Assembly (NCBI GenBank): GCA_036570125.1
Contig: DATCPK010000068.1
Coordinates: 1-62,468 of the forward strand
From: Candidatus Limnocylindria bacterium
Lineage (GTDB): Bacteria > Chloroflexota > Limnocylindria > P2-11E
Direction of reading: 5' to 3'
Length of the DNA: 62,468 nt
Part shown: positions 1 through 43,285 of the stretch, in pieces
Position numbering within the stretch: position 1 is the stretch's first letter
Layout: each line of letters starts with the position of its first letter
Position numbers and translations under genes: made by a program
The notes under the pieces: model-generated
Told to the model about the DNA's origin: nothing
The model's database searches: none
Seen by the model: the letters and a program-made list of their open reading frames with translations, nothing else

Positions 1-3000
1 GGCCGGAGCCGCTCGCGCTCACGCCGGCGACGAAGTAGCGGCTGCTTACCGCGACCGTCGTCGCAGCGCTCGACGAGCTATCCAGCGCAGCGCCGCCGAC
101 GATGAGCAAGGTGCCGTCGCCGTAGGTCGAGTTGTCGAACCCGACGATCGTCCGCGTGCCGAAGCCCGCGATGGTCACCTGCTGGCCGGCGGCGAAGCCG
201 AGGCTCTGCCACGGCTGGCCGTCCTTACGCGCGATCCTGTTGCTCGAGATGTCGAAGGTCGCGCTCACGGAGAGCCAGTCGCTGACGCCGACCGTTGCGG
301 CCGCTCCGCTCGAGGTGTCGAGCGCCGGGCCTGCCGTTTGAACGACCTGCAGCGTGCTGTCGGGCGCGCTCGAGGGTCCGGTGAAGCCGACGATCGTGAA
401 CGAGCGAGTGACGACGCCGGCGCTGGTCGTCGTGAGCATCGTGATCTGCTGGCCGACCGCGAATCCACCGGTCCGCCAGTCGACGCCATCGGTCCGGGTG
501 ATCAGGCCTGCGGTGGTGGTGTCGAAGGTGCCCGCGATCTGGAGCGGTGAGTTGCCGCCGCCGTGCACGGTCGTGAGACCGCCGTGCGAAGCGACGCGCA
601 TCGCGCCGTTGTTCGCGAGCTCCGCACCCGGCACGAGCGTGCTAATGATCGTGAAGGTGTCGTTGCCCGAGCCGAGCAGAAGGTTCAGGACCTCGATCGT
701 TGACGTGTTGCCGTCGGTCTTGAAGTTCTTGTTCGCGTCGAGCGTGATCGTTCCGTAGCTCACGCCGCCCGGGTACTTGCCCGGCTCGCCGAACGGGAAC
801 TTGAACCCGGTCGGGAACGACTTCGTGAAGTCGAGGTCGTCCGCCATGTTCAGGCCCGTGATCGCGGTCGAGGTCATCTGACCGACGTTGTCCTGCGTGC
901 TGCCGTCGGCGAAGACATTGAGCGTGTCGATCTGCTGCCATTCGGGCGGCTGCGCCGCGATCTGGAAGAGCGGTCCGTTCGACTCGCCCGGCAGCAGGAC
1001 GGCCTGGTGCAGCGAGCGGTCCGCGCCGGTCGTCCCGCCCTCGACGGCGAGCGGCCCGCGGATGCCGGAGAGCAGGTGCGCGCGCTTCGGGAACGTCTTC
1101 AGGTTCTCGCGACCGGCCGGCAGGCTGAAGGTCGGATCCGCGAGGAGCGGAACGGTGACCTGCTGGTACCAGTTGCTCGACGTGAACGTGATGACCGGCG
1201 CGCACTGCGTGATCGCCGTGACGGTCCCGCACGACGCGGCGTTCGCGACCGCGAGCGTCGCCAGATCGAGCTTGCCCGAGTTCGGCGTCGCGTCGGTGAT
1301 CGACACGATCTTGAAGGTGCCCGTGACGCCCACCAGCTGGATGAGCTGACCCTCGAGGAAGCCGCTGTCGAGCCAGCTCTTGCCGTCGGTGCGAACGAGC
1401 GTCTTCGTGGTGCTGTTGTAGGTGGACGTGCCCGCGTAGATGCCGCGGTCGACAAGCTGGCTGATCGTCGCGAACCCTGGGCTAACGGCGCCGCTCAGCG
1501 TCATGGACTTCCCGTCTCCCGAGATCGAGAGGATGTCGAGGTCGGTGCTCGTCGTGCCGACGGTCACGCGGACGTGCATGCCCGTGGTGAAGCCGTCGTC
1601 TAGGAAGCTGCCGAGGTCGGCGCCGATGTAACGCGTGACCACGGCGCCGCTCGCGGTGATGTTGCCGGTGAAGAGCTGCTGCGGGCGCGCCCCGCCGACG
1701 AGCTTGAGGCTCACGCCGCCGCCCAGCGTCACGTCGGTCTGGCCGTCGGTCACGATCGCGATGTCGACCGGTGCCGTCGGCGCCTTCGTGAGACGGATGC
1801 TGTAGCTGTCGCCCGTGCCGGGGGTCGTGCAGTCCGCGCCGCAGGCGACGACAAGCGTGCGCCCGTTGCTCTCAAGGATGAACACGCCGGGCGTCTCGTC
1901 GTCGATCGAGAGCGCGTTGACCCGAGCCGAGATGGCCGCCTTCGCCGCGTTGTAGTCCGCGTCGTTCGTGGTCGTGACGGTGTGCAGGAGCGTGGTGCTC
2001 TGCGGGTCCTGCGCGACGAAGTCGTTGCGCGCGCGGACGGTGATGCGCACCGGGATGTTCCAGTCCGCCTGGGTGAACACGATCGTGTAGGTCGTCCCGA
2101 GCACCGGGCAGGTGCCGTCCGCGGCGGCGAAGCGGCTGTCGGCGCTCGACAGGCAGAGGCGGTTGTTGCTCGGCGCGACCAGGACGGTCACCGATCCGGT
2201 GCTGTCGACGGGCGCCTTCGCCAGCTGCACGTCGTAGATGTCGGTGACCTGCGTCGTCGTGTTGCCTTCGAGCACGATCGTGTTGCTGTCGGGCTGGGTC
2301 GTGTTCGGGTCGAGCTCGGTCACGATCACGTCGGCCTTGTCGTTGTCGACGACGTCGACCTCGACATTGCGCACCGTCGCGTGGTCGAACCGCGCGTCCT
2401 GGCTGATCACGGACTGCGCCGAGATCGCGACGCGCTCGCCCTCCGGACGCGTGTCGTCGTAAGCGAACACGTAGACCGCCTGCGGCGTGTTCCAGTTGGT
2501 CTCGTCGAAGACGAGGACGATCGCACGCTGGCGGATGGTCTTCGGGTCGCCGTTGAGCGTGATGGTCCGGTTGAACGCGGCCTCCGACGACGGATCCGTC
2601 GACACGAGGAACGTCTCGCCGTTGGACTGCTCTTCCTGGCCGGTCATCGTGCCCGACACCGTCACGTAGACCTTCTTCGTCGGCGCGACGGCGAGGCGGA
2701 TGTTGTACTGGTCGATCGACTGGATGCAGCTCACCGGAGTCAGGCTGAAGCAGCCGCCCTCGGCGATCCGCGTGGCGGTGCCGACCTCTTCGACGATGAC
2801 CTGACCCTGGTTCGTGCGCGCGACCGCGAGGTCGATGCCGTCCGCGAGGATGCCCGCGTACATCGAGTCGGCCGAGCGCACGAAGTGGTTGATCGTGCCG
2901 CTCGTGCCTTCGATGTTCCGCGAGACCACGTCGCCCGCGACGTCGCCGGCGACGTTGATGGTGTCGCTGCCGAGGCCGCCGATGACGCGGGTGAGGACGC

Positions 3001-6000: not shown

Positions 6001-9000
6001 TGTCGAACAGGGTGTCGGCCTCGTCGCGGAAGCGGATGAGCTCGGCGGCGATCGGCACGCGCGGTCCGGCCTGCTGCCCGATGGATCCGTTGTCGGCGTC
6101 GAGCTCGAGCTTGTTGGTGCGGATCAGCTCGGCGTCCGTATCCGTCGTGCAGCAGCTGAAGTTCGCCACGAACGTCGTCGAGTTGACGCCGTTGCTCTCG
6201 ATCCCGTGCAGGTCAAGCGCGTTGTCGGACAGGATGTTGCCGCGCACGTTCTTGATGAGCGTGTGGCCGATGACGTTCTCGATGCCGCCGTCGAGGACGA
6301 TGTCCGACGGCGTGGTCGTGCCGCTCAGGTTCTGGATCTGCACCTCGGTCTTCGCGAAGACGTGCGTGACCTTGAACTCGAACGTCGGGAAGCTCGTCGT
6401 GCTCTCAGCAAGATGCAGGTCGTCGGCCGGCGAGCTGACCGGGCCGGGAATCGTGTCGAGTGAGACCTCGATCTTCGGCGGGTTCGCCGTGGTCACGACG
6501 ACGATGTCGTTCACGACGAGCTTGCGGTCCGAGTAATTCGTGATCGTGACGGAGTCCCACGTGTCTTTCACCTGGAACTCGCCCGCGTTCCCGTAGATGA
6601 CGCTCGCCGGCGAGCGGTCGTTCGCCTCGAACCGGACGTTGCCACCCTCGTCGTAGATGAGGTCGCCGACCACGATCCACGCGCCGGCCGGAACGACGTC
6701 ACCAACGTTGAGCAGGCCTGTCGAGTACGTGTTCGTGCTCGGGTCGAACCACTTCACGTAGACGTTCTTCGTCTTCGCGGTGATCGTCCCGCTCGCGTCG
6801 ATCGTCAGCACCGGGTTCGGCTCGCCAAGCAGGATGACCGTGGACTCCCAGTAAATGCGACGGGTGGCCGAGCTCGCGCCGTGTGAGCCGCCGTTGTGAT
6901 CGACGAACACGCCGCCGTGGGCGTTCTGCGGCCGCGACGGATCCGATCCGAACGCGTTGGTCGAGACGGTCAGCGACGCCGTCTTCAGGAACGAGTCGTT
7001 CTCGCCGAACACGAGAGCCGTGGCGGTCAGGTCACCGGTGCTGTTCGCTGTCGCGTTGCCCGCGAAGCAGTGACACGCCGCGTCCGAGTCCGCGCTCATG
7101 TCGATCCCGCGGAACTCGCTCGTGATCGTGATCGTGTCGTTCCCGACGAGCTGCTCGCCCGAGCCGCCCGTGCGTGTCTTGATCCGAACCTCGTTCGTGC
7201 TCGGTAGCGAGACCACCGCGGTCGCGTCGCCGTTGCCGCCGCCGGCCCACGTGTCGGCGCTCGCGGCGGCGTGCAGGAAGGCCTTCGAGCCGATGGCGTT
7301 GACCTGGAGGTCGTTCGCGCTCACACGCGCGCCGCCCCAGATCTCGGTCCTCGTGACGGAGCCGTCCGCGACGTCCACGCGCGCGTCGGCGTTCGTGTCC
7401 GCGCCGAGCCCGGCGCTGTCGCTCTCGGCGTTCGCGGTGCCCGTGAGGCTCGTGTTCGATTCGATGCGCGCCGTGCCACCCGACGCGATCGTGCCCTTCA
7501 CGATCGTCTGCGTCGTGTGACCAAGCGTCGAGATCGCGTGCGAGTGCACGCCGGCGATGAGGCCGCCACCGGCGCCCTCGGAGTCGACGCTCGAGACGAT
7601 GGTCGCGCCCGCGACGACCGTGACATTCCCGGTCGCGATGAGCTGCGCGCCCGTCTCGATCGTGACCGTCGTGTTGGTCGTCGCCGCGGTCGCCGCGTCG
7701 GCGCTGCCGATCGAGACGAGGCCGCCGCCGCCGCTCGTGGTGTTCGCACCGACGAGGCCGCGGTTATCGGTGGTCACGTTGATCGTGCCCGCGCGGATGA
7801 CCGCGCCCGCGCCGATCGTGTTGGTGATCGTGGGCTCGACGGTCGCGCTCGCGGTCGCGCCCTTCACGTCGATGACACCGCCGCTCGAGCCGGACGACGA
7901 GGCCGTGGCGACCTGATCGCCCGTCGGCGCGCCGGCGAGCGTGCTGCTGCCGCCGACGCCGAGGAGCTTCTGCATGCCGCTGCCGCCGGAGGCGAGGTCG
8001 ATGATCAGGTACTGCGGACCCGTGCCGGGGGCGGTGATGTTCACGCCCTCAGCTGCGAAGGAGTGCGTGCCGATGCCGCCTGTCCGGCCGCCGTTGCTGA
8101 AGAAGATCGGCGTACCGCCCGGCGACGTGGCGAGCTGGAACGTCGTGCTGCTCTGGTTGCGCACGAAGTACACGCGGCCGTCCTCGAGGCCGCTGAGCGG
8201 CGCCTCGGCCACCTTGGTGAGCGAGTGCTCGGCCTTGTTGCCGGCGGTCGACGTGTCGCGGGTCAGCGTGAGCGCAACGACCGCCTGGTCGGTGTCCGGC
8301 GTCCCGTCGGAGTCCGTGTCGAGCTGCGGGCAGTTGGTCGAGTCGCCCGCGGTGCCAACGGCACGGCAGTAGGTCGTCGCGAGCTTGACCAAGAACGGAT
8401 CCGACTGGTTGATCACGTAGTAGACGCCGCCGCTCACGATCCCGGAGCCGATCGTGCTTCCCGGGTTCGTCGAGCGATACGTCACCGCTTCGCCGTTCGC
8501 GAAGCTCATGTGCGTCGAGAACGTCCCGGACGTGTTCGGGTCGCCCGTCGCGACGAAGATCGTGTTTGCAGTGTTGTATTGCAGCTGCGGCGGGGTGGCC
8601 CCGCTCAGGGTCGGCGTACCACCCGACGTGATCAGGTTCACCACGACGTTCGTGAACGTCGCCACGGCCGGGGCGTGGTACGTCACGGGCTGGTTGGGCG
8701 TGAACGAGTTGGACGCGCTGATCACGCCCTGACCCGATCCGTTGACCGTCACCGCGCTCGCGGTCGTGATCGATGCGGGCGGCGTCGTCACAGAGGGGTC
8801 CTGCAGCTTGATCGTGCGCCCATCGATGACGTGGACGCGGTAGAGCGTGCCGGAGGAGAGACCGGGCACGAGGCCGCCGGTCGGCGACGGGAAGTACCAG
8901 ACCATGTCGCCTTCGACGAGGCCGTGCGAGCCGCCGAAGCTGATCGCGTCCCTTGTCTCATCGATCGACGCGCCGGCGAACGTCGTGCCGAGCTGCAGCG

Positions 9001-12000
9001 AGTTCGTCGAGGCGACGCCGCCGATGACCGGCACGATGACCCCGTAGCGGCGCCCGTCGGTCAGGCCGAAGCCGCCGCCACCGAGCCGCTGGTAGGTCAC
9101 GAACTGGCCGGTGTTCAGGCCGTGCGCGTCGGTGAACGTGATGCGGTTGCCGGTGAGCCCGTCGGTCGAGGTGACTGCACCCGGCACGGTGAAGAGTCCG
9201 TTGCTGTACACGGGCGGCGTCGTGTTGTGCGTCGCTTCGATCGTGACGGTGGCGGCCGTGATGCTCGCGCCCGCGCCGACCCCGACGTCGACGTGCGGCG
9301 TCGTGTGCACGGTCGCGCCGAAGCTCTGCACGTTGATCGCGCCGCCCGATGCGGACCGCGTCGTCGCGTCCGCGTCGGTGATGCTCGCCGCGATGACGTG
9401 GACGGTCGTCGTAGCGATGACGACCGAGCCCGCCGTGCCGATCTGCGCGCTGACGGCGGAGGCGACGGTCGCGTTCGAAGCCGTGCTCGCGCCGATGTTG
9501 ATCGCGCCGCCGGTCGTGGTGTCGAACACGCTCGTCGCGAGGTCGTAGCCCTGCGACGAGACCTCGACGGAGTTCGCACCCGTGGTCGCGGTCGGGCCGG
9601 TCCCCTGGCGGACGTGCCCGAGCAGCCACGCGTTCGTCGATCCGCGCGTCGTCGCTACCGGGTTGATGTCGGCGGACACCTGAACCAGCGCGCCGCCCGC
9701 GGTCTGGGCGCGTGCGTCCGAGATGTTCGCCGACCGCGCCTCGACGGTCACGATGCCGTTCGGCGCCGCGAGCGTCGACCCGGCGCTTGCCGTCACGTCC
9801 GTGGCCGCCTGCGCGTCAGCGCTCACGTTCGCGCTGCTCACCGATAGGAGGAGCGACGCGGCGAGCGATTCGACCGACGCCGAGGTGGCGTAGGTGCTGA
9901 GGAAGCTCGACGAGGAGCGGTCGTAGTTGTGCAGCGCGCTCAGGCGCACGTTCCCGTTGGTGCTCGTGATCGACGCGCCGGGCGCCAGGGTCGTCGCGAT
10001 CGAGCTCGAGTCCGTCGCGCGTGCGGTCATCACGCCGACCGACACACCCAGAGCGAGGTTGACTCCCTGCGCGAGAGACTCGGCCTTGGTCCTCACGGAG
10101 GACTCGATGACCACGTCGCCCGAAGCGGTGATGCTGCCGCCGACCGACGTCGTCACGGCGGGCGAGACGGTCGCGATGGTCGTGGTGTCGGTCGCGGCGC
10201 CGCCGAGCGCGTAGGTCTGGCCCGCGGCCGTCGCGCGGCTCGCCGCGTCGACGATGGTGCTGACCGTCACCGTGGCGGCGTTCGTGACCGTTCCGTTGAA
10301 GCCGGTAGAGATGGTGCCGCCCACGAGCGCTGTCGGGTTGATGACCCCGACGCCACCCAGGAGCGCGATCGTCAGCTGCGATCCGTCGACATCCGCGCGC
10401 TGGTACACGCGGGTCTTGACCGAGAGGTTCCCGGTGATGTTCACGGTCTTGCCGGCGCCGATCGTCGCGGTCACCGTCGGCTGGTCGTACGCGAACACGA
10501 CGGCGCCCGCACCGCTCACGAGGCCGATCGAGCCGAGCGACACTTCGCCGCTCGCCGGGATCGAGAAGCCCGCCGGCAGGTCCGCGGCGGTGCCGGCCTC
10601 ATTGCTGTTGAGGCGCGTGAGGAACGTGGCGTTGCGGCCGGTGATCGCGCCGCTGCCGACCGTGAACGCGCCGACCTGCGGCTGCAATGTCGCGGTCGAC
10701 TGCGTCGTTCCAGCCGAGAACGCGCCGGCGCCGACGCCGCTGCCGTGCGAGAGCGCGATCGCGTGGGCGATCGCGGTGAAGGTCAGATCGCCCGTGCCGG
10801 TGTCGACGCTCGCGTTCGTGCCCACCCACGCCTTGGAGCTGGACGTGTTGGTCGCGGCCGTCTCCGTGAACTGACCGTTGGCGAGCAGGCTGATGGCGAG
10901 GAAGCTGGCCGACGCCGACGGTGTCGAGTCCGCTGTCGCCGTGGCGGTCACGCCGGTGCCGGTCGTGGTGACGTCCGTCGGCGTGCCGCTGCCCGCCTGA
11001 CTGCCGACGAATGCCGCGACGGACGCCGAGTCGCTCGCCAACACGGTCGCCGCGCCGATCCCGAGGCCGAGGCTCACGCCCAGGAACGAGTTGCTCGCGT
11101 TCGGCAGCTGGCTCCCGTGCGCGCTCAGCGACAGCGATCCGGCGCGGACGTTCGCTCCGTCGCCGACGTAAGCGCGCGTGGCGCCGCTCGTCGTCGCGGA
11201 GATCGACGCGAGGTTCACGTTGACCGCGACGCTGATGCTCGTGGACTTCGCGGCCGCGGTCGCGGCGGACGTGCCGTTCGCCGTGAACGAGGCCGCGCCG
11301 GTCCCGACGTTGACCGAAGCGCGGTCGCCGATCTTCGCGTCGACGGTCTGGTTGAGTGACGCGCTCGTGAGCGAACCCGCGCCGCCGGCGAGCGAGAAGC
11401 CGACGAAGAACGTCGTCGCGGACGAGACGGCGTCGCCGGTGGCGGTCGCTGTGAGCGACGTTGCGCTGACGGATCCGTCGTTCGCGACGCCGGCGCTCGT
11501 CAGTCCGCTCAGGCGCGATCGCACGTCGACGACCGTGATCGTGATGCCGCCGATCGAGACGTTGTCGTTCGACGAGGTCGAGTGGGTCGTCGATTGCGCA
11601 GTGACCGTCGCGGGCCCGGTCAGGTTGATGACGCCGCCGAGCTCCGCCGTCGTCTGCTGGGTGACGCCTGTCTCGATGACCGTGCCGCTTCCGCCGAGGA
11701 GCGAGACGCCCACGAAGCTCACAGTCGCGGAGGTGTCGTTCGTCGAGGTGGCGGTCACGGAGAGCGACGGGCCGCTGAGCTGCGCGCCCGTGTCGCTGCC
11801 CGCGTTCGTGCTTCCGCCGAGCGCCGTCGTGATGAACTGTGCGGCGCCGCTGACGATGCCGACGCTCACGGCATTCGTGGTGACGGTCGGTGTCGAGTGC
11901 GATGTCGCGGTGAAGGTCGCCGCGCCGGTGAGCGTCACGTTCGCGCCCGACTTCAGCTTCGCGTTCGTCGCCGCGCTCACCTGCGCGAGCGTCGTCGAGA

Positions 12001-24000: not shown

Positions 24001-27000
24001 CACCGCCGTCGCCGTTACCGCCGTTGTCCGTCGACATGCCGCTCGCGAACGACCGCTCGCCCCCGACCTGATTGGTGACACCGTCGCCCGCGCTGCCGCC
24101 GCTGCTCGGATCCGCTGGGGCGGCGGCGGCGGACTCGTCCTGCGGCGCGCCTGCGGCCGACGCCTTCGCGGTCGCCGATGTCTCTGATGTTCCGTTCGCG
24201 ACGAGCATGACCGCGCCACCCGCGTTGAGGTTCCGCCAAAGCGTCGCCTCGGAGCGGTGGTTCGCGATCGTGAGCGCGAGCGAGACGCCGATCGCCGCGG
24301 TCTTGCCCTTCGCGTCTCCTTCGGCACTCGTGTTCGCTGACGCGGTCTGGTCCGTGGTCGCGCTGAACGCGCCGGTGATGACGAGCGGCGTCCCGACGCC
24401 AACGGTCGCCAGCGTCGTGATGTTCGAGATGACGATCGCAACGGACGGCACGACGGCGACCTTGCCGCCCGAGGCGCCGGTCTTCGCGTGCGTCGTCGCG
24501 TAGTGCGTGGTGCCGGCTGCGATCGTGAGCCTGCCGCCGCCCACGAGGGTCCCGAGGAGCTGCGCCGTCGTGGTGTCGTCGATCACAGCGACGGCCACAG
24601 ATGCGCCGATACCCACGGAGCCGGCGCCGATCGCGCCGCCGGTCGATTCGGACGGCAACGCGCTCGTGCTGGTCGTGGAGTCGGAGGCTGCTCGGATGGA
24701 CACATCGCCGGTGCCGGCGTTGAGCCAGCCTTCGAGCGATGCACCCGTCTGAATGTTTTCGATCTCGATGGCGACGGAACCCGCGATCCCGACCGCGCCG
24801 CCGCCGGCGCCGCTAGTCGCGGATGCGCCGAGTGCGTTCTGCGATGTCGTGAGCGCTTCGATGGTCGCGCCGTGCGCGCTCACGGTGCTGTCCGGGGGCG
24901 CCCTCGCTTCATTCGTGACGCGGACGTAGTTGATCGCGACCGCGACGCCGATCGAGACACCCGATGTCGAGTCAGTCGGCGAACCGCTCGAGCTGCCTGA
25001 TGTCGAATCCGCCGGCGCGCTCGAATCGCTCGGTGCGCTCGAGTCCCTCGGCGCCTGCACCGCGCTGCCGTCCGCGGTTGCGTGCGCGTTGGCGTGCGCA
25101 GAGCTCAAGAGCGAGAAGAGACCCGTCGCCGTGACGACGATGCCGTCGATCACCGCGCGGGCGATCACATTGGCGAGGTTGATCGCGACCGCCGCAGCGA
25201 CGGACACGCCGCCGTTGGAAGTCTTCGCCTCGGGCGTGTTCGCGCCATCGCCGGTCCCGCTGCCGCCGTTATCCGTCGACATGCCGCTCGCGAACGAACG
25301 CTCACCGGCGACCTGGTCGCTCACGCCGCTGGAGGCGTGACCCGTCGAATCGGTCGGGCCTGCTGCACCGGATTCGTCCTGCGGCGCGCCGGCGGCCGAT
25401 GCCTTCGCGGTGGCGGACGTGTCCGAGGATGCGTGCGCCGCGATGGTGACCGCGCCGACCGCGATCAGGTTCCGCGAGAGCGTCGCCTCTGCGCGGTGGT
25501 TCGCGATGGTGAGCGCGAGCGAGACGCCGATCGCCGCCGACTTGCCCTGCGCGTCGCCCTCGGCTGTGGTGTTCGCCGACGCGGTCTGGTCGGCCGTAGC
25601 GCTGAACGAGCCGCCGATGGTGAGCGCGCCGCCGCCGGAAACCGTCGCGAGCGTCGTGATGTTCGAGAGCGCGATCGCGACGGACGGCACCACGGCGACC
25701 TTGCCGCCGGATGCGCCGGTCTTCGCCCGAGTCGTCATGAGGTGGGTCGTTCCCGCGACGAGGGTGACGTTGCCGCCGCCGATGAGCGTTCCGGTGAGCT
25801 TGGCGGTCGTCGTGTCGTCGACGATCGCCACCGCGACCGATGCGCCGATACCCACGGAACCTGCGCCGATCGCGCCGCCGGTCGATTCGGACGGCAACGC
25901 GCTCGTGCTCGTGGTCGAGTCGGATGCGGCTCGGATGGAAACGTCGGCGGTCCCCGCGTCGAGCCAGCCCTCGAGGGAGGCCGACGTCTGGATGTTCTCG
26001 ATCTCGATGGCGACGGAGCCCGCGATCCCAACCGCGCCGCCGCCGGCACCGCTCGTCGCGGATGCCCCGAGTGAGTTCTGCGATGTCGTAAGTGCTTCGA
26101 TGGTCGCGCCGGTCGCGCTCACGGTGCTGTCCGGGGGCGCCCTCGCTTCGTTCGTGACGCGGACGTAGTTGATAGCGACGGCGACGCCGATCGAGACGCC
26201 CGATGTCGAATCGGTCGGTGAGCCGGTTGATCCGCCGGAGGTCGAGTCCGCCGGTGCGCTCGAGTCTCTCGGCGTCTGCACCGCGCTGCCGTCGGCGGTC
26301 GCGTGCGCGTTCGCGTGCGCCGAGCTCAAGAGCGAGAACAGACCGCCGGCGACCACGACGATGCCGTCGATGACCGCGCGTGCGATCGCCTGCACCAGGT
26401 TGATCGCCACCGCCGCCGCGACCGACACGCCGCCCGAAGACGTCTTCGCCTCTGGTGTATTCGCGGCGTCGCCTGTCCCGCTGCCGCCGTTGCTCGTCGA
26501 CATGCCGTTCGCGAACGAACGCTCTCCGGCGACCTGGTCGGTCACGCCGCTCGAGGCGTGTCCGGTCGAGTCGGACGGCGCCGCGGCGCCGGACTCGTCC
26601 TGCGGTGCGCCGGCCGCGGAGGCTTTCGCGATCGCGGACGTGTCCGAAGAACCGTTCGCGGCGAGCGTCACCGCGCCGGTCGCGGTCAGGTTCCGTTGGA
26701 GAAGCGCTTCGGTGATGTGGTTCGCGATCGTGAGCGCCAACGAGACGCCGATCGCCGCGGACTTGCCCTGTGCGTCGCCCTCGGCCGTCGTGTTCGCGGA
26801 TGCCGTCTGATCGGCGGTCGCGCTGAACGATCCGGTGATCACGAGCGGCGCGCCCGGCGTGACGCGCGCGATCGTCGTGACATTCGAGAGAGCGATGGCC
26901 ACGCTCGGCACGACCGCGACTTTGCCGCCCGACGCGCCGGTCTTCGCGTGCGTCGTCGCGAGATGCGTCGTGCTCGCCGCGATCGCGAGATCGTTCGCGC

Positions 27001-30000
27001 CGGTCAGCGTTCCGCTGAGCTCGGCGAGCGTGGTGTCGTCGATGATCGTGACCGCGACCGACGCGCCGATGCCGACGGAGCCGACGCCCGACACGCCCGC
27101 TCCCTCAGGAAGCGCGTCGGTGGTCGTTTCCGAGTCAGCCGTCGCGGTGATCGCGACGTCGCCACCACCCGCGATGAGCGTTCCCGCGATTTGCGCGGTC
27201 GTCTGGATGTTCTCGATGTCGATCGCGACGGATCCGGCGATGCCGACTGCGCCGCCGCCCGCGCCGCTGGTGGCGGAGGCGCCAAGCGTGTTCGTTCCGT
27301 CGTCGGTCATCACGGCCTCGATCGTCGCGCCGTTCGCGGTGACCGTCGCGCCCGCGGGGAGGATCGCCATGTTCGTGATGCGCACGTAGTTGATCGCGAC
27401 GGCCGCGCCGATCGTCACGCCGGACGACGACGAATCGCTCGGCGCGCCTGCGCTCCCGGTGCCGCCGGAGCCCGAATCGAACATGCCGCTCGAGCCGTCA
27501 TCCTCGTCGCTCTCGTCTTCGTCGACGCCGAAGATCCCGGCGGGCGTGTTGCCCACGCCGCCGCGCTCGGAGTCGGCGGCGTCGGTCTCGTCGGCCGCGT
27601 TCTCCGCGGCAGCCGACCGGCCTGCGCTTCCGTCCGCCGTCGCCTGCGCGCTGGTGAGTGCGGAGCTCGAGAGCGTGAAGAGGCCGCCGGCGTGGATCGT
27701 GATCACGCCGATCGTCGCGAGCGAGATGGTCTTCGCGAGGTTGATCGCGACCGCGGCCGCGACGTTCACGCCGCCGCCCGAGGTCGATGCCGCGGGCGTG
27801 CTCTCGGCGTCGCCCGAACCATCGCCGCCGTTCGCGACGGAGGTCTGCGATGCGAATCCGCGCTCGTGCTCCACCTGATCGCTCACGCCGTTGCCGGGGT
27901 TACCGCCACCGGACTCGTCCTGCGGTGCGCCCGCCGCCGATGCGACCGCGCTCGCCGAGGTGTCCGACGAGGCATGCGCGCTGAGCGAGACCGCGCCGCC
28001 CGCGTCGAGGTCGCGGTAGAGCGTGGCCTCGGTGCGGTGGTTGGCGATCGTGAGCGCGAGCGAGACGCCGATCGCAGCGCTCGAGCCCTGCGCCGAACCT
28101 TCCGCGCTCGTGTGAGCAGATGCGGTCTGGTCGGCGCTCGCCGTGAACTCGCCGTCGATGTCGAGCGCGTCGCCGGCGCCGACGGTCGCGATCGTTGTGA
28201 TGTTCTCCAGGGCGATCGCGACGGACGGAACGATCGCGACCTTGCCGCCCGCGGCGCCCGTCTTCGCGTTGGTGTTTGCGAGGTGCGTCGTCAATGCGGC
28301 GATCTCGAGGTCGTTGCCGTTCTGCAGCGTTCCGATGAGCTCGGCGACCGTGAGGTCATCGATGAGCGCGACCGCGACCGATGCGCCGATGCCAACGCTC
28401 TTCGCGCCGGTGACGCCACCGGTCGCCGCGGCCGGGAGCGCCTCGGTCAGGGACTCTGCATTCGAAGCCGCCGCGATCTTCACGTCGCCGCTCCCCGCAT
28501 CGAGCGAGCCCGCGAGTGACGCGACGGCGTGGCTGTTCTCGATGTCGATCGCGACCGAGCCCGCGATCCCGACGGCGCCGCCGCCCGCGCCACTCGTCGC
28601 CGAGGCGCCGCGTGCGGAGAGGCCGTCGTCGGTGACGACCGCTTCGATCGTCGCGCCCTGCGCGTGGACCGTCGCGCCCGCCGGCAGCGTCGCGTCATTC
28701 GCGGTGCGCGCGTAGTTGATCGCGACCGCCGCACCGATCGAGACACCCGAGGTCGAGTCGGTAGGCTGCACGGCGCTACCGTCCGCGGTCGCCTGCGCGT
28801 CGGTGTCGGCTGAGCTCGAGAGAGTGAAGCGACCGATCGCGTGCACGACGATTTGGCCGATCGTCGCGCCTGCTGTTTCCTTCGCGAGGTTGATCGCGAC
28901 CGCGGCTGCGACATCGACACCACCGCCGCTGGTCGATGCGCTTGGCGTGCTTGCGGCGCCGCCTGAACCGTCGCCGCCATTCGCCACGGACGTGTCGTTC
29001 GCGAACGTCCGCTCGCGTCCGACCTGCTGATCGACGCCGTCGCCGGCCTGCCCGCCCTCGGTGCTCCCCTGCGGAGCGCCCGCGGCGGACGAGCGCGCGG
29101 TCGCCGAGCTACCCGACGCGCTGTGCGCGCCGATGGTGACGTCAGCGCCCGCGTCGATGTCGCGCAGGAGTGTCGCTTCCGCGCGGTGGTTCGCGATGGT
29201 GAGCGCGAGCGATACCCCGATCGCGGCGGACGAACCCTCGGCGTCGCCGAACGCCGTCGTGTGCGCGGACGCGTTCTGGTCCGCGGTCGCGCTGAAGCTT
29301 CCGGTGATGGTGAGAGCGGCGCCCGCGCCGACCGTCGCCGTCGTGGTGACGTTCGAGAGCGCGATCGCGACCGAGGGAACGACCGCGACCTTGCCGCCGG
29401 CGGCGCCGGTCTTCGCAGCCACCGTCGCTTCGTGCTTCGTCGACGCGGCGAGAGCCAGGTTGCGCCCGCCGGTCACGGTGCCGGAGAGGTCCGCGGTGGT
29501 CTTGTCATCGATCAGGGCGACGCCGACCGACGCGCCGATGCCCACCGAGCCCACGCCGGTGACGCCCGCGCCCGTCGGCATCGCTTCGGTCGCGCTCGTC
29601 GTGTTCGACGCGGCCGCGATGCGGATGTCGCCCGTGCCTGCGTGCAGCGTGCCCGCGAGCGATGCGCTCGTGTTGATGTTCTCGATCTCGATCGCGACGG
29701 ATCCTGCGATGCCGACCGCGCCCCCGCCGGCGCCGCTCGTCGCGGACGCGCCGAGCTCGTTCTGCGAGCCCATGAGCGCTTCGATCGTCGCGCCGTTCGA
29801 GTCGACCGTCGCGTGCTGCGGCAGTACGGCCTCGTTGGTGATCCGGGCGTAGTTGATCGCGACGCCCGCGCCGATCGATGCGCCCGTCGTCGGATCGGCC
29901 GGCGCTCCGGCGCCACCGCTCGTGTCGCTCGGGTCGCTCGCATCGCCCGCGCCGCGCGTGGCACTGCCGTCGGCCGTCGCGTGCGCGTCGCTATCGGTGG

Positions 30001-33000
30001 ACGTCGAGAGGATGAACCGGCCGCCCGCGATCACGTGGATATCGCCGATCGTCGCGCGCGACTCCGTCTTCGCGAGGTTGATGCCGACCGCTGCCGCGAC
30101 CGACACGCCGCCACCCGACGTCTTCGCGGCCGGAGTGCTCGCGGCGCCCGAGGTGCCGCTTCCGCTGTTGTCGGTCGACGTGTTCGCCGCGAACGTGCGC
30201 TCGCGCGCGACCTGCTGATCGACGCCGTCGCTGGGCTGCCCGCCTTCGGTCGAATCGCCGGGCGCGCCCGCGGCGCTCGCCTTCGCGGTCGCGTCGCTGT
30301 CCGACGAGCCGTGCGCGCGGAGCGCGACCGAGCCATCCGCCGTGATGTCGCGGTCGAGGGTCGTCTCGGTCTGGTGATTCGCGATCGTGAGCGCGACCGA
30401 CGCGCCGATCGCCGCGGTCTTGGCCTTCGCGCTGCCCTCGGCCGTCGTGCTCGCGGACGCGGTCTGGTCCGCCGTCGCATAGAAGCTCCCGGAGATGTCG
30501 AGCGCCGTGCCGCCCGAGACCGTCGCGTTCGTGGTGACATTCGAGAGCGTGATGGCGACGCTCGGCGTGATCGCGACCTTACCCGCCGCGCCTGTCTTCG
30601 AGTGCGTCGTCGTCGCGTGCGTCGTGCTCGCAACGAGCGTGAGGTCGTGACCGCCGTCGATCGTGCCGGTGATCTCGGCGGTCGTCGTGTCGTCGACGAT
30701 CGCGAGCGCGACCGATGCGCCGATCCCGGTCGGACCTTCGTCGGGCGCGGGCTGCGGGATGTTGATGCGGACGCGCCACACACCGCGGCCCTGCGTGCCG
30801 ATGTAAAGGTCGAACGAATTCGCGGTCAGGTGATCGAAGTACGCGAATTCCGGACGCGACAGGTTCGGCACACCCGAGACATCCGACGTCAACGGATCGG
30901 TAATGAGCGTCCAATTCTTACCCGCGTCGACGCTGAGGAACACACCAGAGTCGCGGCCGCCGGCCACGACGTTGTTCGGATCCTTCGGGTCGAACGCGAC
31001 GAGCGATGGCTGCGGGTAGCCGAGGACGCCATTGAATCCGGTGATCGGCGAGATCGTGCTGAAGTTCCCGAACCCGCGCTGCGTCGTGTAGCGGAACGCG
31101 CCGTTGCCGGTCATGAGCGTGTCGAGCTCCGGATCCGTGTTCCAGGTCAGACCGGCATCGGTCGAGAAGACCATTCGCGGACCGGTCGCGCTCATGTTCG
31201 ATGCGTAGAGGCGGCTCGAGTTGCTCGCGTCGACCGCGAAGATGCCGACGCCGCCGGCCTGTCCGTCGGTGTTGTCGACCTGCGTCCACGCTCCACCCGC
31301 GGTCGCGCCGGTGTAGCGCCAGAGCTGGTCGCCGTTCGTGCCCATCGTCCGCTCGTTGCAGATGCCGGCCTGGATGTAGAGGGTCGGCGTGCCTGGGCGG
31401 CCCGCGGTGTCCGCGACGGTCACTGCGCACGCATTCGCCGGGCTCCCGGGAAGCGGCGTCCAGATGACGGGAGTCGCGGTGATGTCGGTCGTCACGTAGA
31501 CGCCGCTCGACGTGAGGATCACGTACTGCTTATCCGCGAGCCGACCGATCGCCTCGCTCGCGCGGAAGCCGACGATCTGACCCGGCGGCTGCGACGCGGC
31601 GGGGAGCTGACCCGCACCCGCGAGACCAGGACCGCTCATGAAGAGGACGGTCTGTCCTCCGTAGCAGCACGAGGTGTAGAGGACGCGGTTGGCGTCGGCC
31701 GAGAAGTCGAACACGTCGCAGCAGTCCGGGTTCTGCCATGTCGGGGTCGCGGCACCGGCGTTCGTCGTTCCCCACGAGCCGTCGTCCTGCACGCCGAAGT
31801 AGAGGTCCTCGGCCAGAGCGCCGGGACGGTGGACGCCGGCCACCGCGAGCAGCCACAGCGCGTGCGGTGTCGTGATCGGCTGCTCGAACTTCGGGTTCTG
31901 GCAGTCGGCGCCGGCGTCGGTGTTGCGATACACGCCGCCGTCCGACGCGAGGATCTTCGGGCATGCGTCGGTCGCGGCCTGCGTGTCGAACACGAGATCG
32001 CCGAGGTCGTCGTGCGCGCCCTGCGTCGCGGGCGCCGGCAGCGCCGCACGGAACCGCGTGAATGGGCCGACCCAGGTGTTCGCGGTCGGGCATCGCGGGC
32101 CCGCGATGAACGAGGTGCAGCCGGCGCGGAAGAGGCTCACATCGCCGAACCACAGATCGAACACGTTGTTCGCGCCGACGTTGGCGCGCTGGTTCGTCAC
32201 GACGAACGGAATGCGTCCCTGCTGGTTCGCGCCGGCGACGTTGAACTCACGCGACCACGTGACGCCCGCGTCATCCGACTCGAAGAGGCGCAGGCCGCTC
32301 ACCGCGAAGATCACGTTCGGTTCGTCCGGCGAGACCGCGATCGAGCACGGCCCAAGCGGCAGGCCGCCGGAGCCGATCGCGCCGCCGATCCACGTCGCCC
32401 CGCCGTCGGTGGAGCGGAAGTGGCCGTCGTCGCCGCAGATGTCGACGATGCCGTTCGCGCCGCCGCTCTGTACGACGATGTCCCACACGTCGCTCGCGGG
32501 CGTGAGCGGTGTCGGGTCGACGAAGTGCCACGTCACGCCGGAGTCGTTGCTGATCGCGACGCCGCAGTCGGTGCCGATGAAGACGTTGTTCGGCGCGTCG
32601 GGACGGATACCGATCCCCATCGCCGAGGGCTCGCTGATGTTCGCCGCTGGGCAGTTGAACCCACCGGCCGGCGTGGCGGTCGCGGGATGCGTCCATGTCG
32701 TCCCGCCGTCGGTGCTCACGTTGATGCCGGCGATGCTCGCGACCCGGCCGTCGTAGAACGACGTCGCGTACACACGCTGGATGTTGCTCGGGTCGACCTC
32801 GACGTCCCACGTCGCGAGCGGCTTGTGCCCGGAGAGGAACGTCCAGTGCTGGCCGCCGTCGATCGTCTTGTAGATGCCGCCCCACTCCGTCGCCGCGTAG
32901 AAGATCAGGTTGTTGCCGGCGACCGACGCGAGGTTGTTGACGCGGCCGCCCGACGCGCCGTCGGGGTCCGTCGAATCGCTGGGCGACGAGCTCGGGTTGA

Positions 33001-36000
33001 TGTCCGTGAAGCCGCCCACCGTGAACGGCGGAGGCGTCGGCGCGGCCGCCGGGTTGTGAACGATCTCGGCGGGCAGCGCGGTGACGTCGCCCGACGTGTT
33101 CGACGCGGCGAAGATCACGATGTTGCCCGTCCCGGCGTGGAGCGTCCCGGCGACGGATGCGGTCGTCTGGATGTTCTCGATGTCGATCGCGACCGAGCCA
33201 GCGATGCTGAGCGAGCCGCCGCCGGCGCCGCTCGTCGCCGATGCGCCGAGCTCGTGCGTCGAGGCCATGCGCGCTTCGAGCGTCGCGCCGTTCGCGGTCA
33301 CCGTCGCGCCGGTCGGAAGGATCGCCTCGTTGCGAATGCGCGCGTAGTCGATCGCCACGCCCGCTCCGATCGACACACCGGTCGTCGAATCGACGGGAGC
33401 GCCCGCGCCGCCCGTGGAGTCGGCGGGCGCGCTCGAGTCGACCGCGTTGCGGACCGCCTGGCCGTCGGCCACGGCGTGCGCGTCGGTTTCGGCGGAGGTC
33501 GAGAGCGTGAAGCGACCGACCGCGTTGACCACGACCGCGCCGATCGTCGCGAGCGAGCTGGTCTTGGCGAGGTTGATCGCGATCGCGGCCGCGACGGAGA
33601 TGCCGCCCGCCGATGTCGCGGCGTGCGGGGTGGCGTCGGCGCCGCTCGCGCCGCTACCGCCCGTCGTGCTGTCGGTCGCGCTCGCGAAGCTGCGCTCCTT
33701 CTGGACCGTTTGATCCACGCCATCGCCTGAGCTTCCACCGCCGGACGCGTCCCCCGGCGCGCCGGCGGCAGAAGCGGTCGCGGTTGACGAGGTGTCCGAG
33801 GACCCGTGCGCGGCGAACGTCACCGCCCCACCTGCGGTGAGGTCGCGCGCGAGTGTCGCCTCGGTGCGGTGATTGGCGATCGTGAGTGCGAGCGAGAACC
33901 CGACCGAGGCGCTCGCGCCCTTCGCGTCGCCCTCGGCGTTGGTCAGGGCAGACGCGGTCTGGTCGGCGGATGCTGCGAGCGATCCGCCGATCGTCATCGG
34001 CGAGCCCGTGCCGACCGCAGCTGTCGTGGTGATGTTCGAGAGCGCGATCGCGACGGCCGGGGCAATCGAGACGCCGCCGCCCGACGCGCCGGTCTGGGCG
34101 TCGGTGCTCATGTCGTCTGCGGCGCTCGCGCGAAGGGTCAGGTCGTGGCCGGTGATCGTCGCGCCGTCGGCGACCGAGGCGGTCGTCGTGTCGTCGACGA
34201 GGTTCAGGGCGACCGAGGCGCCGATGCCGAGCTTGCTCGCGCCGCTCACGCCGCCGTTCGCGGGGAGCGCCTTCGCGATCGACTGGGCATTGGAAGCCGC
34301 GGAGAGCTCGATCGAGCCCGCGCCTGCCGCGACCGTCCCGGTGACCGTCGCGTGCGTGTCGAGATGGACGATGTTGATGGCGAGCGAACCGGCGAAGCCG
34401 ACCTTGCCGCCCCCCGCACCCGAGGTCGCCGTGGCGCCGAAGTCGTGACGACCGTCGCCTGCAGCTGTGACCAGCGCCCGCACCGTTGTCGGACCGTTTG
34501 CCGTTCCGGCGACCGTGGCGGAGTTGGTGACCGTCGCGTAGTTGATCGCGACCGCTGCCCCGATGTTCGTGCCCGACGGGGGACCCCTCGCTGTGGTCGC
34601 GCTGCCGTCGGCGTTCGCCTTCGCGTCGGAGCTCGCCGAGGACCAGAAGCTCAGGCTTCCGGCGCTCACTGAGACGTCCGCGGGGAGGCTCGAGCTCGAC
34701 GAGGTCTTCAGAATGTTGATCGAGACCGCGGCCGCGACGCTGATCGCGCCGCTCGATGAGTTCGCAGGAGGCGTGGCCGGGGCCGAGTCGCCGCTCCCGC
34801 CGTTCGCTGAGCGCACGCCGGTCCCGAACGAACGCTGGCTGGCGACCTGTTGGTTCACGTCCGGCGTGCCGGACCCTTCGGCGGCCGCGCCGTTCGCGCT
34901 GGCCTTCGCGTCGGTCTCGGTCCCGGAGGCGCCCGATGCGCCGAACTCGACGCTGCCAGCGGTGGAGAAGCTGCTACGGGTGGTCGCCGTCACGGAGTGG
35001 TCGGCGATCCCGAGCGCGAGTGCCGCGCCCACGGAGGTGTTCGTGCCCTTGGCGTCGCCCTGGGCGTGAGTCGTCACTGGCGCCGACGAGTCGGTCGCGG
35101 TCGCGACGAGGTTGCCGGTCATGGCGAGCGAGACGCCCGTGCCGATCGACGCCTCGGTGCTGAAGCCCGAGTAGGTGAAGGCAACGACCGGGGTGATCGC
35201 GGTCCCGCCGGCGGCGCCGCCCTGGGCGGTGGTGGCGACGGTGCGGTCGCTCGTCGCGTCGAGCGTGAGGTCGTGCACCGTCACGGTCGACCCGTCCTCG
35301 AGCACCGCTCGCGTGTCGTCGTCAACGATGTGCACGGCGACCGAGGCGCCGATGCCGGTCTTCGCGCCGGAGGAGCTGTCCTCGGCGGCGGTGGCGGCGG
35401 CCGTGCTGTCGAGCGCCGAGTTCGCGACGAACCGCATGTCCGTCGTGGGCGAGCCGCTGACCGTCGCGTCGTGCTGGACCGATGCGGTGGTGTCGAGGCT
35501 GACGACGTTCACCGCAAGCGATCCGGCGAAGCCGACCTTCGTCGCGTCGCCGACGCCGGACGTCGACTGGGCCTCGAACGAGCCACGCGTCGGCGTGATG
35601 GCCTCGACGGTCACGCGGCTGGCATGCAGCGTGGCGCTCCCGAGCTGCGCGCTCGTCGTTACGTTCGCGAGGTTCACGGCGATGGCGACGCCCACGCCCG
35701 AGGCGCTCGAGTCGACCGGGCTGCCGTCGGCGATCGCCGACGAGCTCGCGGTCGACGCCGCGTGCACCTTCTGTTCGCCCGTCGTGGTGATCGAGAGCGC
35801 CGTGTCGCTGCCCACCTTCGCGCTGGTATCGCCGTGCAGGCGACTGAAGGAGAGGGCGCCGGCGTAGGTCAGGCTGCCCTCGCTCGTCCGCGCGTTACCG
35901 CCGGTGCGGTCGGACGGCGACTCGTCGTTATTCGTCGATCCACCGGGGCTCGCCTTCGACCAGCTCGTCACACGGCCATCCGAGTCCGCGGACACGGTCG

Positions 36001-38689: not shown

Positions 38690-38896
38690 GACGAAGGACC
38701 GCCATTCGGCGGCCCCGATCGTCAGCGATGAATCGCTCCGCGACCCGTGCAAGTAATGCGGAGCGATCAATAAGTGCTGATAAGCCCCACCAGGCTTCCC
38801 CTTCTCTCACGTGCGCTGCGCGCCTTCCCCTAAACGCGACGCTGCGAATCATGCGGTGCGGGTAACGGTTACGCAACAGAAATCTCAAAAGAATTT

Positions 38897-41210: not shown

Positions 41211-41324
41211 CTACGCCGCCTTGCGCTCCTCCGCCTGACTGACCGCGGCGACTCCGCCACGCGACGGCGCGACTAGCCACGCGACGACCAAGATCGCGAA
41301 CGAGGCGAATGCAAGGATCTCCAT
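41211..41324 (-). CDS. 37-aa hydrophobic micro-protein directly downstream of amt
   Basis: ATG 41324 lies 7 nt after AAGGAGG, which overlaps the amt stop codon. The product is MEILAFASFAILVVAWLVAPSRGGVAAVSQAEERKAA, one predicted TM helix. It is too short for the track. Confidence 0.45.
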   Translation of the reverse strand: MEILAFASFAILVVAWLVAPSRGGVAAVSQAEERKAA

Positions 41325-42563: not shown

Positions 42564-43171
42564 TCGTACCTCCCGCGACAGAGCCTGAGCGTCGGTGGTG
42601 CCCCGGTCAGCGACGGTTAGGCACCACGAGGGTTGCGGTTCGGTCGTGGCCACAGTCGAGAAGCGGGGAGCGAACCGGTAGCCGCACAACACGCTGGTTC
42701 GAATCGCTTACTTGTGCCGTGGGATCAGCGCAAGCTCGGGACGACGTGACGCGCGCGAAGCAAGTCCGGATCCGGCGAGTCGATCGGTTCGTCGTGCCGC
42801 GCCGCGCGGGCAGAGGCGGCAAGGGAGACCGACAGATTGAGCTCGCCGAGTGAGACGCGAGCCGCGATGTCATCTGGCGCCTGCGCGACCCGAGCTTCGA
42901 GCGCGGCCCTGACCTCGGCGATCGCCGCTGGAAGGATGAGCCTGGACCGCAGCCGTGAACGCATCACCGTGATCGGGGTGGTTGTGAATGTCGGTTGCTG
43001 CATGAGGGGACACTACCGAGCCGGACCCGAATGAATGTGCTCATGCGCGGTAGAAGCGGTTGCGAAATCGCTGCCCTTTCGCGGCCCGATCCGCTCGCGA
43101 CCGTGGCACGACCGTTGCGTCAGAGTGACGGCCGGGGCTTCGGCATAGAATCGAGAAGCACACAACTGAAT

Positions 43172-43265: not shown

Positions 43266-43285
43266 GACGCGTGGAAACCCTTACG

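Follow-up and report, generated by a model that had tools for sequence, protein, structure and literature searches.

Giant surface proteins of several kinds have been described in bacteria. Fibrillar RTX adhesins comprise 1,500–15,000 aa and form fibres with distal ligand-binding regions (bioRxiv 10.1101/2025.09.30.679566). Several phyla are known to contain proteins of at least 10,000 aa, rare as these are (bioRxiv 10.1101/2023.11.21.568195), and the giants of Ca. Omnitrophota, for which 'antiparallel β-helix' tubules with exterior helices were predicted, have lytic genes nearby (West-Roberts et al., bioRxiv 10.1101/2023.11.21.568195). LktA-type proteins, united by the repeat profile NF012206, include the leukotoxin of Fusobacterium necrophorum, a two-partner-secretion (TPS) exoprotein. 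The subject of the present analysis is a giant gene on contig DATCPK010000068.1 of Candidatus Limnocylindria bacterium (Chloroflexota; assembly GCA_036570125.1). The stretch analysed, referred to below as the window, is the entire contig of 62,468 bp. The open reading frame (ORF) on its minus strand belongs to a real gene that is incomplete on the contig and most likely encodes a fibre or adhesin outside the cell, probably one that binds calcium, of a soil Chloroflexota bacterium.

The giant ORF occupies positions 2..38689 of the minus strand. Translation of complement(2..38689) yields 12,896 codons with no stop; the 5′ end is complete and the 3′ end is cut by the contig end. Since the window is the whole contig, the gene is truncated by an assembly break. 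The ORF does not appear in a stop-to-stop ORF track because it runs off the window end, and an earlier note on this DNA, which had deduced an ORF of at least 12,896 codons running off the left edge, was correct on this point. All 136 stops of this frame within the window lie outside the ORF, the closest in-frame upstream one being TGA at 38807–38809, while the remaining five frames contain 170–702 stops each over the window. With a per-codon stop probability of 0.0202, calculated from the base composition of the window, a stop-free run of 12,896 codons has a probability of ~1e-114. The GC content at codon positions 1, 2 and 3 is 0.60, 0.58 and 0.915; the third-position value (GC3) is uniformly high along the ORF and the composition shifts smoothly. 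The protein consists of 15.4% Ala, 12.8% Gly, 12.4% Thr, 10.9% Ser and 9.0% Val, 60% together, with 1.6% Lys, 2.6% Arg and 0.37% Cys, which bears out the earlier description of an Arg/Lys-poor, Gly/Ala/Thr/Ser/Val-rich product with near-saturated GC3. Internal repeat copies show dN/dS of 0.17–0.52 at dS ~0.5–0.7. This confirms purifying selection on the frame, which constitutes a single uninterrupted coding gene with a minimum of 12,896 codons.

Contigs of the same organism, with the same gene neighbourhood, are present in assemblies from other samples (JGI 3300011998, 3300012019 and 3300038756 and several ENA assemblies, numbered ERZ272486xx). In five strain-variant contigs, assembled independently from at least five samples, the gene has the same start and its initial ~7.4 kb are 99.8–99.99% identical to the window; within the gene, these contigs differ from the window by 37 synonymous and nine non-synonymous substitutions and no indels. 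All eight other contigs of this organism break at window positions ~31.3–32.4 kb (aa ~2,100–2,460), inside a propeller-type insert and before the high-identity super-repeats; the interval ~31,300–32,400 is a systematic assembly breakpoint. Within the ORF there are no exact DNA repeats of 51 bp or longer and the repeat copies are ~66–77% identical as DNA, so repeat collapse is unlikely. Adjacent super-repeat copies have 78–87% protein identity, dS of ~0.5 and dN/dS of 0.17–0.35. The giant size appears to have arisen by old tandem duplication of a super-repeat of ~410 aa.

The ENA gene caller places the start of the gene at ATG 38689. The upstream intergenic region (38690..38896, minus strand) contains two in-frame TTG codons, at 38770 and 38749, as possible alternative starts, ahead of which lies the TGA stop mentioned above; either would place a positively charged, Arg-containing n-region before the N-terminal hydrophobic segment. 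A scan of 38690..38896 found no match to a sigma-70-type promoter or a terminator. The JGI caller sets the start at window position ~37363, ~440 codons later than the ENA start, and calls two antisense ORFs (106–107 and 229–242 aa) over the Pro/Ser/Thr-rich region (window ~37363–38689; 13808–15208 in locus L005); both calls seem to be artefacts, brought about by the high GC content and low complexity there.

The N-terminal part of the protein begins with a hydrophobic segment at aa 3–21 (FVVLYVLFISMPLTTALVL; 38627..38683; this and the following features are on the minus strand), a putative Sec signal peptide or signal anchor. With a Kyte–Doolittle hydropathy over 19 residues (KD19) of 2.34, it is the sole transmembrane- or signal-like segment with KD19 above 2.0 in 12,896 aa, and it is kept in the 73%-identical homolog P0356. 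It is followed by a lineage-specific globular head (aa ~55–225; 38015..38527) with an internal duplication, visible as weak self-similarity at offsets of 94–126, and with no match in Pfam or NCBIfam. The N-terminal head region (aa 1–235) is nearly unique, with two homologs among 5.8 billion proteins. A low-complexity linker rich in Pro, Ser, Thr and Ala, identified from sequence and composition (aa 226–405; 37475..38014), connects the head with the stalk; 55 Pro, 43 Ser, 26 Ala and 23 Thr are found among the 181 residues of aa ~225–405.

The stalk comprises ~10,000 aa (aa ~406–10,400) and is composed of units of 50–60 aa, typically ~53 aa, as defined by an iterated hidden Markov model (HMM) map. 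Its first block (aa 406–1890; 33020..37474), traced by self-similarity, the unit map and a sub-threshold NF012206 match of 43 bits, consists of ~53-aa units that are more diverged towards the N-terminus. The block ends at a BNR/Asp-box β-propeller insert (aa ~1900–2640; 30770..32992), which contains 14 Cys (seven pairs) and seven Asp-boxes of the S-x-D-x-G-x-T-W type, at aa 1942, 1992, 2047, 2093, 2138, 2509 and 2586, all within the span 1942–2593. The propeller assignment is based on PF02012 (34.5 bits; gathering cutoff 27 bits), accompanied by weak matches to Sortilin-Vps10 in Pfam and NF045728 in NCBIfam. The main stalk (aa 2641–6900; 17990..30769) is organised in super-repeats of ~380–440 aa, as indicated by self-similarity, HMM units, NF012206, structure prediction for aa 4167–4986 and coupling analysis. 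It is interrupted by a Cys-loop insert (aa 6901–7200; 17090..17989), in which the cysteine map reveals small repeated domains ending in Cys-x(11–12)-Cys (YYxI...LAxTxC...C). The further stalk (aa 7201–9800; 9290..17089), defined by self-similarity, HMM units and an NF012206 match of 70.9 bits, keeps the 53-aa type to ~7600, contains a unique Trp/Tyr-rich insert at 7600–7800 and then proceeds with a diverged period of ~104 aa. A second Cys-loop insert (aa 9801–10200), followed by the last stalk-type repeats up to aa 10399, is assigned to 7493..9289 by self-similarity and the cysteine map. The remainder (aa 10400–12896; 2..7492) is a non-repetitive C-terminal region conserved in the family, with tandem Ig/Calx-β-like sandwiches, Asp-rich inter-domain motifs and Cys pairs, as shown by structure prediction, Foldseek and colinearity.

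All 48 cysteines of the protein belong to 24 close pairs with a spacing of 1–30. The hydrophobic N-terminus, the linker, the paired cysteines and a nested recognisable domain, here the propeller, had all been noticed earlier and are all present. Four of the Cys pairs are vicinal Cys-Cys doublets, at aa 2323/2324, 2341/2342, 10846/10847 and 11069/11070, the first two lying near each other in the propeller insert. Pfam was run on thirteen 1,000-aa tiles of the protein and gave nothing beyond BNR and the weak Sortilin-Vps10 match in any of them; NCBIfam had no match in aa 9,001–12,896.

A super-repeat of the main stalk (aa ~2,640–6,900) combines some eight hairpin units of 53 aa with one helix and with two loops that are acidic/Ser-rich, and its copies are 50–90% identical as protein. 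These core repeats, which the earlier note could not place in any family, can now be attributed to one: the profile NF012206 (LktA_tand_53, tandem repeat-containing filamentous protein; curated cutoff 50 bits) matches aa 6001–7000 with 150.7 bits and aa 7001–8000 with 70.9 bits, and it is found below the cutoff in five other tiles (16.7–43 bits). Over one hundred database homologs exist as well. Two super-repeats used as a query retrieved 111 proteins, named 'beta strand repeat-containing', 'LEPR-XLL domain-containing' and 'DUF4347 domain-containing' in their sources; distant matches include TpsA proteins with the TPS domain PF05860 (P0217, P0220).

According to an AlphaFold2 model of aa 4167–4986, built from a 45-row alignment (predicted local distance difference test score, pLDDT, 86.1; predicted template modelling score, pTM, 0.82), the stalk consists nearly entirely of β-strands of ~20 residues connected by turns of 2–3 residues; each super-repeat adds to these a short helix and a pair of acidic/Ser-rich loops that are disordered. 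A Foldseek comparison of this model found nothing significant in the viral BFVD library or in the PDB, where the best entries (autotransporter/TpsA β-helices, RTX and S-layer proteins) reached E = 0.32 with a template modelling (TM) score of 0.05; the closest β-helices, Hbp, EspC and EtpA, had E of 0.3–3.5 and TM of 0.05–0.07. Sequence searches against PDB chains were empty even at E ≤ 1, both when the last 2,496 aa and the propeller region served as single queries and when the profiles A1 and A2 were used. A mean-field direct coupling analysis (DCA) of 692 aligned double units, taken from the window protein and from homologous proteins (effective number of sequences, Meff, 624), which is independent of the AlphaFold2 model, revealed antiparallel registers centred at positions 50, 76–77 and 103 (z = 4.2–6.4), which corresponds to turns spaced ~27 residues apart and to pairing on either side. 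Strong couplings between i and i+54 (z up to 9.1) were left uninterpreted and not used as evidence of parallel stacking, because the similarity of adjacent repeats yields the same signal.

The stalk is therefore predicted with high confidence to be a meander of long antiparallel β-hairpins, for which the PDB offers no counterpart. A classical parallel right-handed β-helix, such as those of autotransporters, pectate-lyase-like proteins and FhaB, is ruled out by the ~20-residue hairpin strands, the TM scores of 0.05–0.07 and the antiparallel DCA registers. The proposal of a giant surface fibre or adhesin with a β-helical stalk has thus to be divided: the fibre or adhesin is still the best reading, and the classical β-helix is abandoned.

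The C-terminal region connects the protein with a large colinear family. In the AlphaFold2 model of the last 1,000 aa (pLDDT 71 overall, 80–93 at residues 30–640 of the segment), a string of β-sandwiches is predicted, and Foldseek relates it to CfaB pilin (9e-13), PrgB Ig-like domains, integrin legs, NCX1/CALX CBD12 and adhesin domains of Gram-positive bacteria. The likeness to NCX1/CALX CBD12 (E of 1e-7 to 4e-6) is one of predicted fold; the Calx-β profile PF03160 has no match in the window and weak matches in the tails of relatives. An exhaustive search of 1.84 billion representatives with the C-terminal module gave 2,479 matches, 391 of them at E ≤ 1e-30. Long colinear members have 4,200–7,600 aa; in one of them, P0227 (7,632 aa), the colinearity starts with the N-terminal repeats and reaches as far as the module.

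A leftward extension of the contig had been suggested earlier and was sought with the last 500 aa as a query among metagenome and GTDB genome contigs; it brought relatives in 34 loci, at most 77% identical, and no sequence of the same organism. Their hosts are metagenome-assembled genomes (MAGs) of Chloroflexota (L014, L027 and L033 among them), Dormibacterota, Thermoleophilia and Gaiellales, as well as cultured Bradyrhizobium iriomotense/japonicum (L034, L035, L038), Arthrobacter nanjingensis (strain A33, L040), Sinomonas spp. (L042, L044, L047) and Microbacterium candidum (L046). Proteins above 10,000 aa had been called very rare in prokaryotes; they are rare, and yet they are documented in several phyla, and the window protein is colinear with giant ORFs in many phyla, cultured species included. 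In 27 of the 30 loci analysed, the matching ORF is open over the full 10-kb upstream flank. Colinearity with the window protein extends over 2,500–3,900 aa at 39–74% identity, with the same type of stalk repeat upstream of the C-terminal module: 74% in L014 (2,600 aa), 73% in L033 (2,648 aa), 46% in L022 (3,577 aa) and 39–50% in the Arthrobacter locus L040 (~3,850 aa).

The ORFs of the relatives extend 1,600–2,900 aa past the position of the window end. Their tails contain strong RTX repeats (PF00353, 61–139 bits) and variable terminal modules (M10-like, lectin-like, DUF7507); the window protein itself has six scattered GGxGxD-like motifs. In the two closest relatives the tails are ~1,700 aa long, so the full window protein probably has ~14,600 aa, roughly twice the length of the long colinear homologs recovered. 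The tail of L033 is broken by a frameshift (~8155–8209), after which it is 81% identical to that of L014; L033 belongs to Chloroflexi bacterium CF_39, the closest named relative. The CF_39 MAG contains two paralogous C-terminal modules (L029 and L033; 57% and 77% identical to the window), so genomes of this lineage can carry more than one giant gene of the family. In the 451-kb long-read ENA contig_19920 (L013, 783–21010), the giant homolog is distributed over eight ORFs of 251–1,655 aa that follow one another on the same strand, probably due to indel errors.

Export and anchoring seem to be lineage-specific in this family, judging by the differing neighbours and termini of the relatives. In Bradyrhizobium iriomotense (L034, 19046–21756), genes for SapC (245 bits) and a GAF-HlyD membrane-fusion protein lie 3′ of the giant ortholog, an arrangement that would fit type I secretion in the proteobacterial branch. 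In L017 (16573–19647) and L027 (16408–19533), a protein of ~1,030 aa with SpoIID and Ig-like domains is encoded immediately 3′ of the giant gene, and L027 also has an Amidase_2 gene (19850–21490; N-acetylmuramoyl-L-alanine amidase); the SpoIID protein and the amidase are cell-wall hydrolases. The Microbacterium ortholog terminates in a hydrophobic segment followed by RRRRE, and the closest relatives differ in this respect: L014, L015 and L027 have a conserved terminal M10-like motif lacking the first His of HExxH. In the window protein no LPXTG motif occurs in the 12,896 aa on the contig, the C-terminus being off the contig. The 24 kb upstream contain neither secretion genes, whether of a type I secretion system or for TpsB, nor an immunity gene, the downstream side being off the contig, and the evidence of export for the window gene itself consists of the N-terminal hydrophobic segment and the linker.

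The analysis establishes the reading frame with the selection acting on it, the order of the domains, the family of the repeats, their predicted folds and the homology and colinearity with other giant ORFs; the export route, anchoring, calcium binding and adhesion in the following scheme are inferred. The N-terminal hydrophobic segment would direct Sec-dependent export and might then be retained as a membrane anchor or cleaved, and the Pro/Ser/Thr linker would cross the wall. The ~10,000 aa of LktA-type repeats of ~53 aa would make up a rigid, uninterrupted all-β stalk in which long antiparallel hairpins follow one another and from which disordered acidic loops and one helix may protrude once per ~410 aa. 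This stalk would display the BNR β-propeller and the small disulfide-looped domains. At the distal end, a putative calcium-binding chain of Ig/Calx-β-like domains would be followed, by homology, by RTX β-roll repeats and a terminal module, and these distal parts may make contacts with surfaces, polymers or other cells. Apparently, the working logic would be that of the fibrillar RTX adhesins of Gram-negative bacteria, with Ca2+ rigidification, but with another extender fold and a Sec-type N-terminus. The probability that the protein is such a surface fibre, exported, calcium-binding and either tethered by its N-terminus or cleaved there, with an all-β stalk bearing propeller and disulfide-looped domains and ending in Ig/Calx-β, RTX and terminal contact modules, is estimated at about 0.6.

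Several observations count against this interpretation. The C-terminus, where an anchor, a secretion signal and the terminal module region would be located, is off the contig. Read from the ATG start, the N-terminal segment has neither a charged n-region nor an AXA cleavage motif, which casts doubt on its function as a signal. The interior and the C-terminal region of the gene have no near-identical counterpart in the metagenome and GTDB contigs or the large protein database that were scanned; beyond aa ~2,460 the gene is represented by a single contig, and as only ~7.4 kb at the gene start is matched in other assemblies, the number and order of the repeats rest on that contig and could be wrong. 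No ligand-binding or carbohydrate-binding domain was recognised within the window. The proposed display of carbohydrate-binding and propeller modules by the stalk consequently survives in its second half, with the BNR propeller, and not in its first.

Other explanations of the same data can be given. A structural envelope component, that is, an S-layer-like coat, sheath, spacer or inter-cell tether that sets surface architecture or cell spacing and has no specific ligands, is unlikely, though it comes ahead of the other alternatives. The very regular β repeats rich in Ala, Gly, Thr, Ser and Val would suit it, as would the lack of a specific ligand-binding domain in the window; calcium-dependent rigidification through RTX and Calx-β is also typical of S-layer proteins, and SapC, which adjoins the Bradyrhizobium ortholog, is known from S-layer and type I secretion loci. 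The S-layer protein RsaA even stands among the top Foldseek entries, but insignificantly (E = 5–7, TM 0.06). Furthermore, a single-copy protein of 14 kaa would be costly as a bulk coat, and the succession of anchor, linker, long extender and distal modules is the layout of a fibre, not of a lattice subunit. The least probable of the alternatives considered is that the length is partly an artefact, whether because short reads of paralogous repeats or of different strains were joined into a chimera or in the wrong order, because the locus is a decaying pseudogene or because the product is processed into smaller ones. All eight other contigs of the organism do stop within the gene, after 1,657–2,560 aa and ahead of the high-identity repeats, window 1–31,300 has no independent confirming sequence, and related genes are fragmented (eight ORFs in L013, a frameshift in L033). 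Because the repeats are all in the same frame, an in-frame mis-join would leave no trace. However, 38.7 kb are free of stops (P ~1e-114) with uniformly high GC3 and smooth composition, exact repeats of 51 bp or more are absent, and adjacent copies, with dS of ~0.5 and dN/dS of 0.17–0.35, indicate old duplication under selection. The domain order is, moreover, colinear with full-length P0227 and with L014, L022 and L040.

An offensive or lytic contact-dependent protein, the stalk of which would deliver a C-terminal toxin or wall-degrading activity to neighbouring cells after the models of LktA, CdiA-type TpsA proteins and the Omnitrophota giants for which a role in predation was proposed, is doubtful, a little more so than the envelope component. 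The repeat family takes its name from LktA, the leukotoxin of Fusobacterium, and its distant homologs P0217 and P0220 have TPS domains, but the window protein has no N-terminal TPS domain, and neither TpsB nor an immunity gene occurs in the 24 kb upstream. The C-terminal ends vary among relatives (M10-like, lectin-like, DUF7507), whereas in L014, L015 and L027 the terminal module is devoid of the first His of HExxH, and no toxin, protease or glycosidase domain exceeds its threshold in 12,896 aa. A SpoIID protein follows the giant gene in L017 and L027, in the latter with an amidase, and giant genes with neighbouring lytic enzymes have been tied to the degradation of prey cell walls (West-Roberts et al., bioRxiv 10.1101/2023.11.21.568195); this neighbourhood is, however, known from relatives only. 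A related idea, that the stalk is an unsolved β-architecture of 20-residue antiparallel hairpins, possibly a hollow tubule like that predicted for the Omnitrophota giants, shared by a family that extends over Chloroflexota, Actinomycetota and Proteobacteria, and which together with the SpoIID and amidase genes of relatives would make up a reach-and-degrade or conduit device acting on the walls of neighbours, beyond a passive spacer, is more improbable than the offensive protein and slightly less so than an artefact.

The proposed calcium-binding surface fibre can be compared with the described systems in some detail. Nearest is the giant 'beta strand repeat-containing' family (P0227 and others), of which the window protein is a member by its colinearity in the C-terminal module and stalk repeats. 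P0227 has ~4,800 aa ahead of the module, versus ~11,900 in the window protein. The RTX tail present in relatives is off the contig here, and the N-terminal head is nearly unique to the window protein. With LktA-type proteins the stalk shares the 53-residue repeat profile. In contrast to LktA, the window protein lacks the PF05860 TPS domain (aa 1–1000, Pfam and NCBIfam), has no TpsB gene in the 24 kb upstream and is ~4 times longer, with super-repeats and with propeller and Cys-loop inserts; LktA comes from a diderm pathogen and the present protein from a member of Chloroflexota, and signs of toxicity are absent. Chloroflexota are generally regarded as monoderm. Membership in the TpsA exoproteins (FhaB, LktA, CdiA) was rejected, PF05860 being unmatched at the N-terminus.

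With the fibrillar RTX adhesins of the LapA, MpIBP, SiiE and FrhA type, the protein shares a common logic: a cell-proximal N-terminus, a long repetitive extender, distal Ca2+/binding modules and, in the tails of relatives, C-terminal RTX repeats. Genes of these adhesins typically break short-read assemblies, as happened here. The extender of the window protein, however, is formed of hairpin repeats and not of bacterial immunoglobulin-like (BIg) domains, with no BIg/Big_* Pfam match in any tile, and its N-terminus is hydrophobic, of the Sec type and followed by the Pro/Ser/Thr linker, with no Pfam or NCBIfam match to a retention module. A BIg-type fibrillar RTX adhesin was rejected on account of the extender. 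The Omnitrophota giants resemble the window protein in predicted antiparallel strands with regularly spaced exterior helices, in having no solved counterpart and in a length above 10,000 aa, and wall-hydrolase genes adjoin the giant gene in some relatives of the window protein as well. This likeness is drawn from the secondary-structure pattern and stays a lead only; in three dimensions the stalk may be a flat ribbon, a multilayer or a tube. Membership in the Omnitrophota type was rejected; the window protein has one hydrophobic segment only and no SecA_DEAD or other enzymatic Pfam match.

Giant repeat-rich surface fibres are an already known kind of protein; the core repeat is covered by a curated profile, its homologs number in the hundreds, and nothing points to a new mechanism. 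What is new is the size, no larger member of the family having been found, the host lineage, an N-terminal head that is close to unique and a confidently predicted stalk fold that resembles no solved structure. With at least 12,896 aa, and probably ~14,600, the protein would rank among the largest of bacteria. The family is widespread and experimentally uncharacterised; as it is present in culturable soil bacteria (Arthrobacter, Sinomonas, Microbacterium, Bradyrhizobium), its function can be tested by genetics. The long-hairpin stalk is a good target for structural work on how bacteria build sub-micrometre fibres. Since eight contigs of one organism end inside the giant gene, such genes are systematically broken in metagenome assemblies, and their frequency and size are underestimated.

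The 24 kb upstream of the giant gene contain housekeeping genes unrelated to it, encoding Amt, an AHSA1-like protein, ABC-2 transporters, a GAF histidine kinase with a response regulator, PhoH, 7TMR-HD and YbeY. Proteins with 90% identity or more to this YbeY belong to MAGs of Ca. Limnocylindria and Chloroflexota. Directly upstream (window 38897–40018, minus strand) a protein of 338/373 aa is encoded that has no Pfam match; it contains an H-L-D-A-W-R-S-N stretch, which we take to resemble the HxDxxxxN catalytic loop of aminoglycoside phosphotransferase (APH)/choline-kinase-like phosphotransferases. A functional tie of the giant gene to this protein, to a 154-aa ORF or to the AHSA1-like and Amt genes was considered and dismissed, as there is no Pfam link and these genes do not adjoin the homologs in the other loci examined. 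A P-II gene (glnB/glnK) often follows the gene of an ammonium transporter; none was seen in the window, and in all assemblies a 37-aa ORF is called straight after the transporter gene (window ~41211–41324, minus strand; L005 11240–11353). Further upstream, at ~43.3–46.7 kb, there is an operon for thiamine pyrophosphokinase (TPK) and an energy-coupling factor (ECF) transporter (PF04263/PF04265, PF09819, a double ABC ATPase and CbiQ). Just 5′ of this operon, a thiamine pyrophosphate (TPP) riboswitch (RF00059; window 43167–43277, plus strand) is recognised with 66.3 bits, above the gathering threshold of 54.3.

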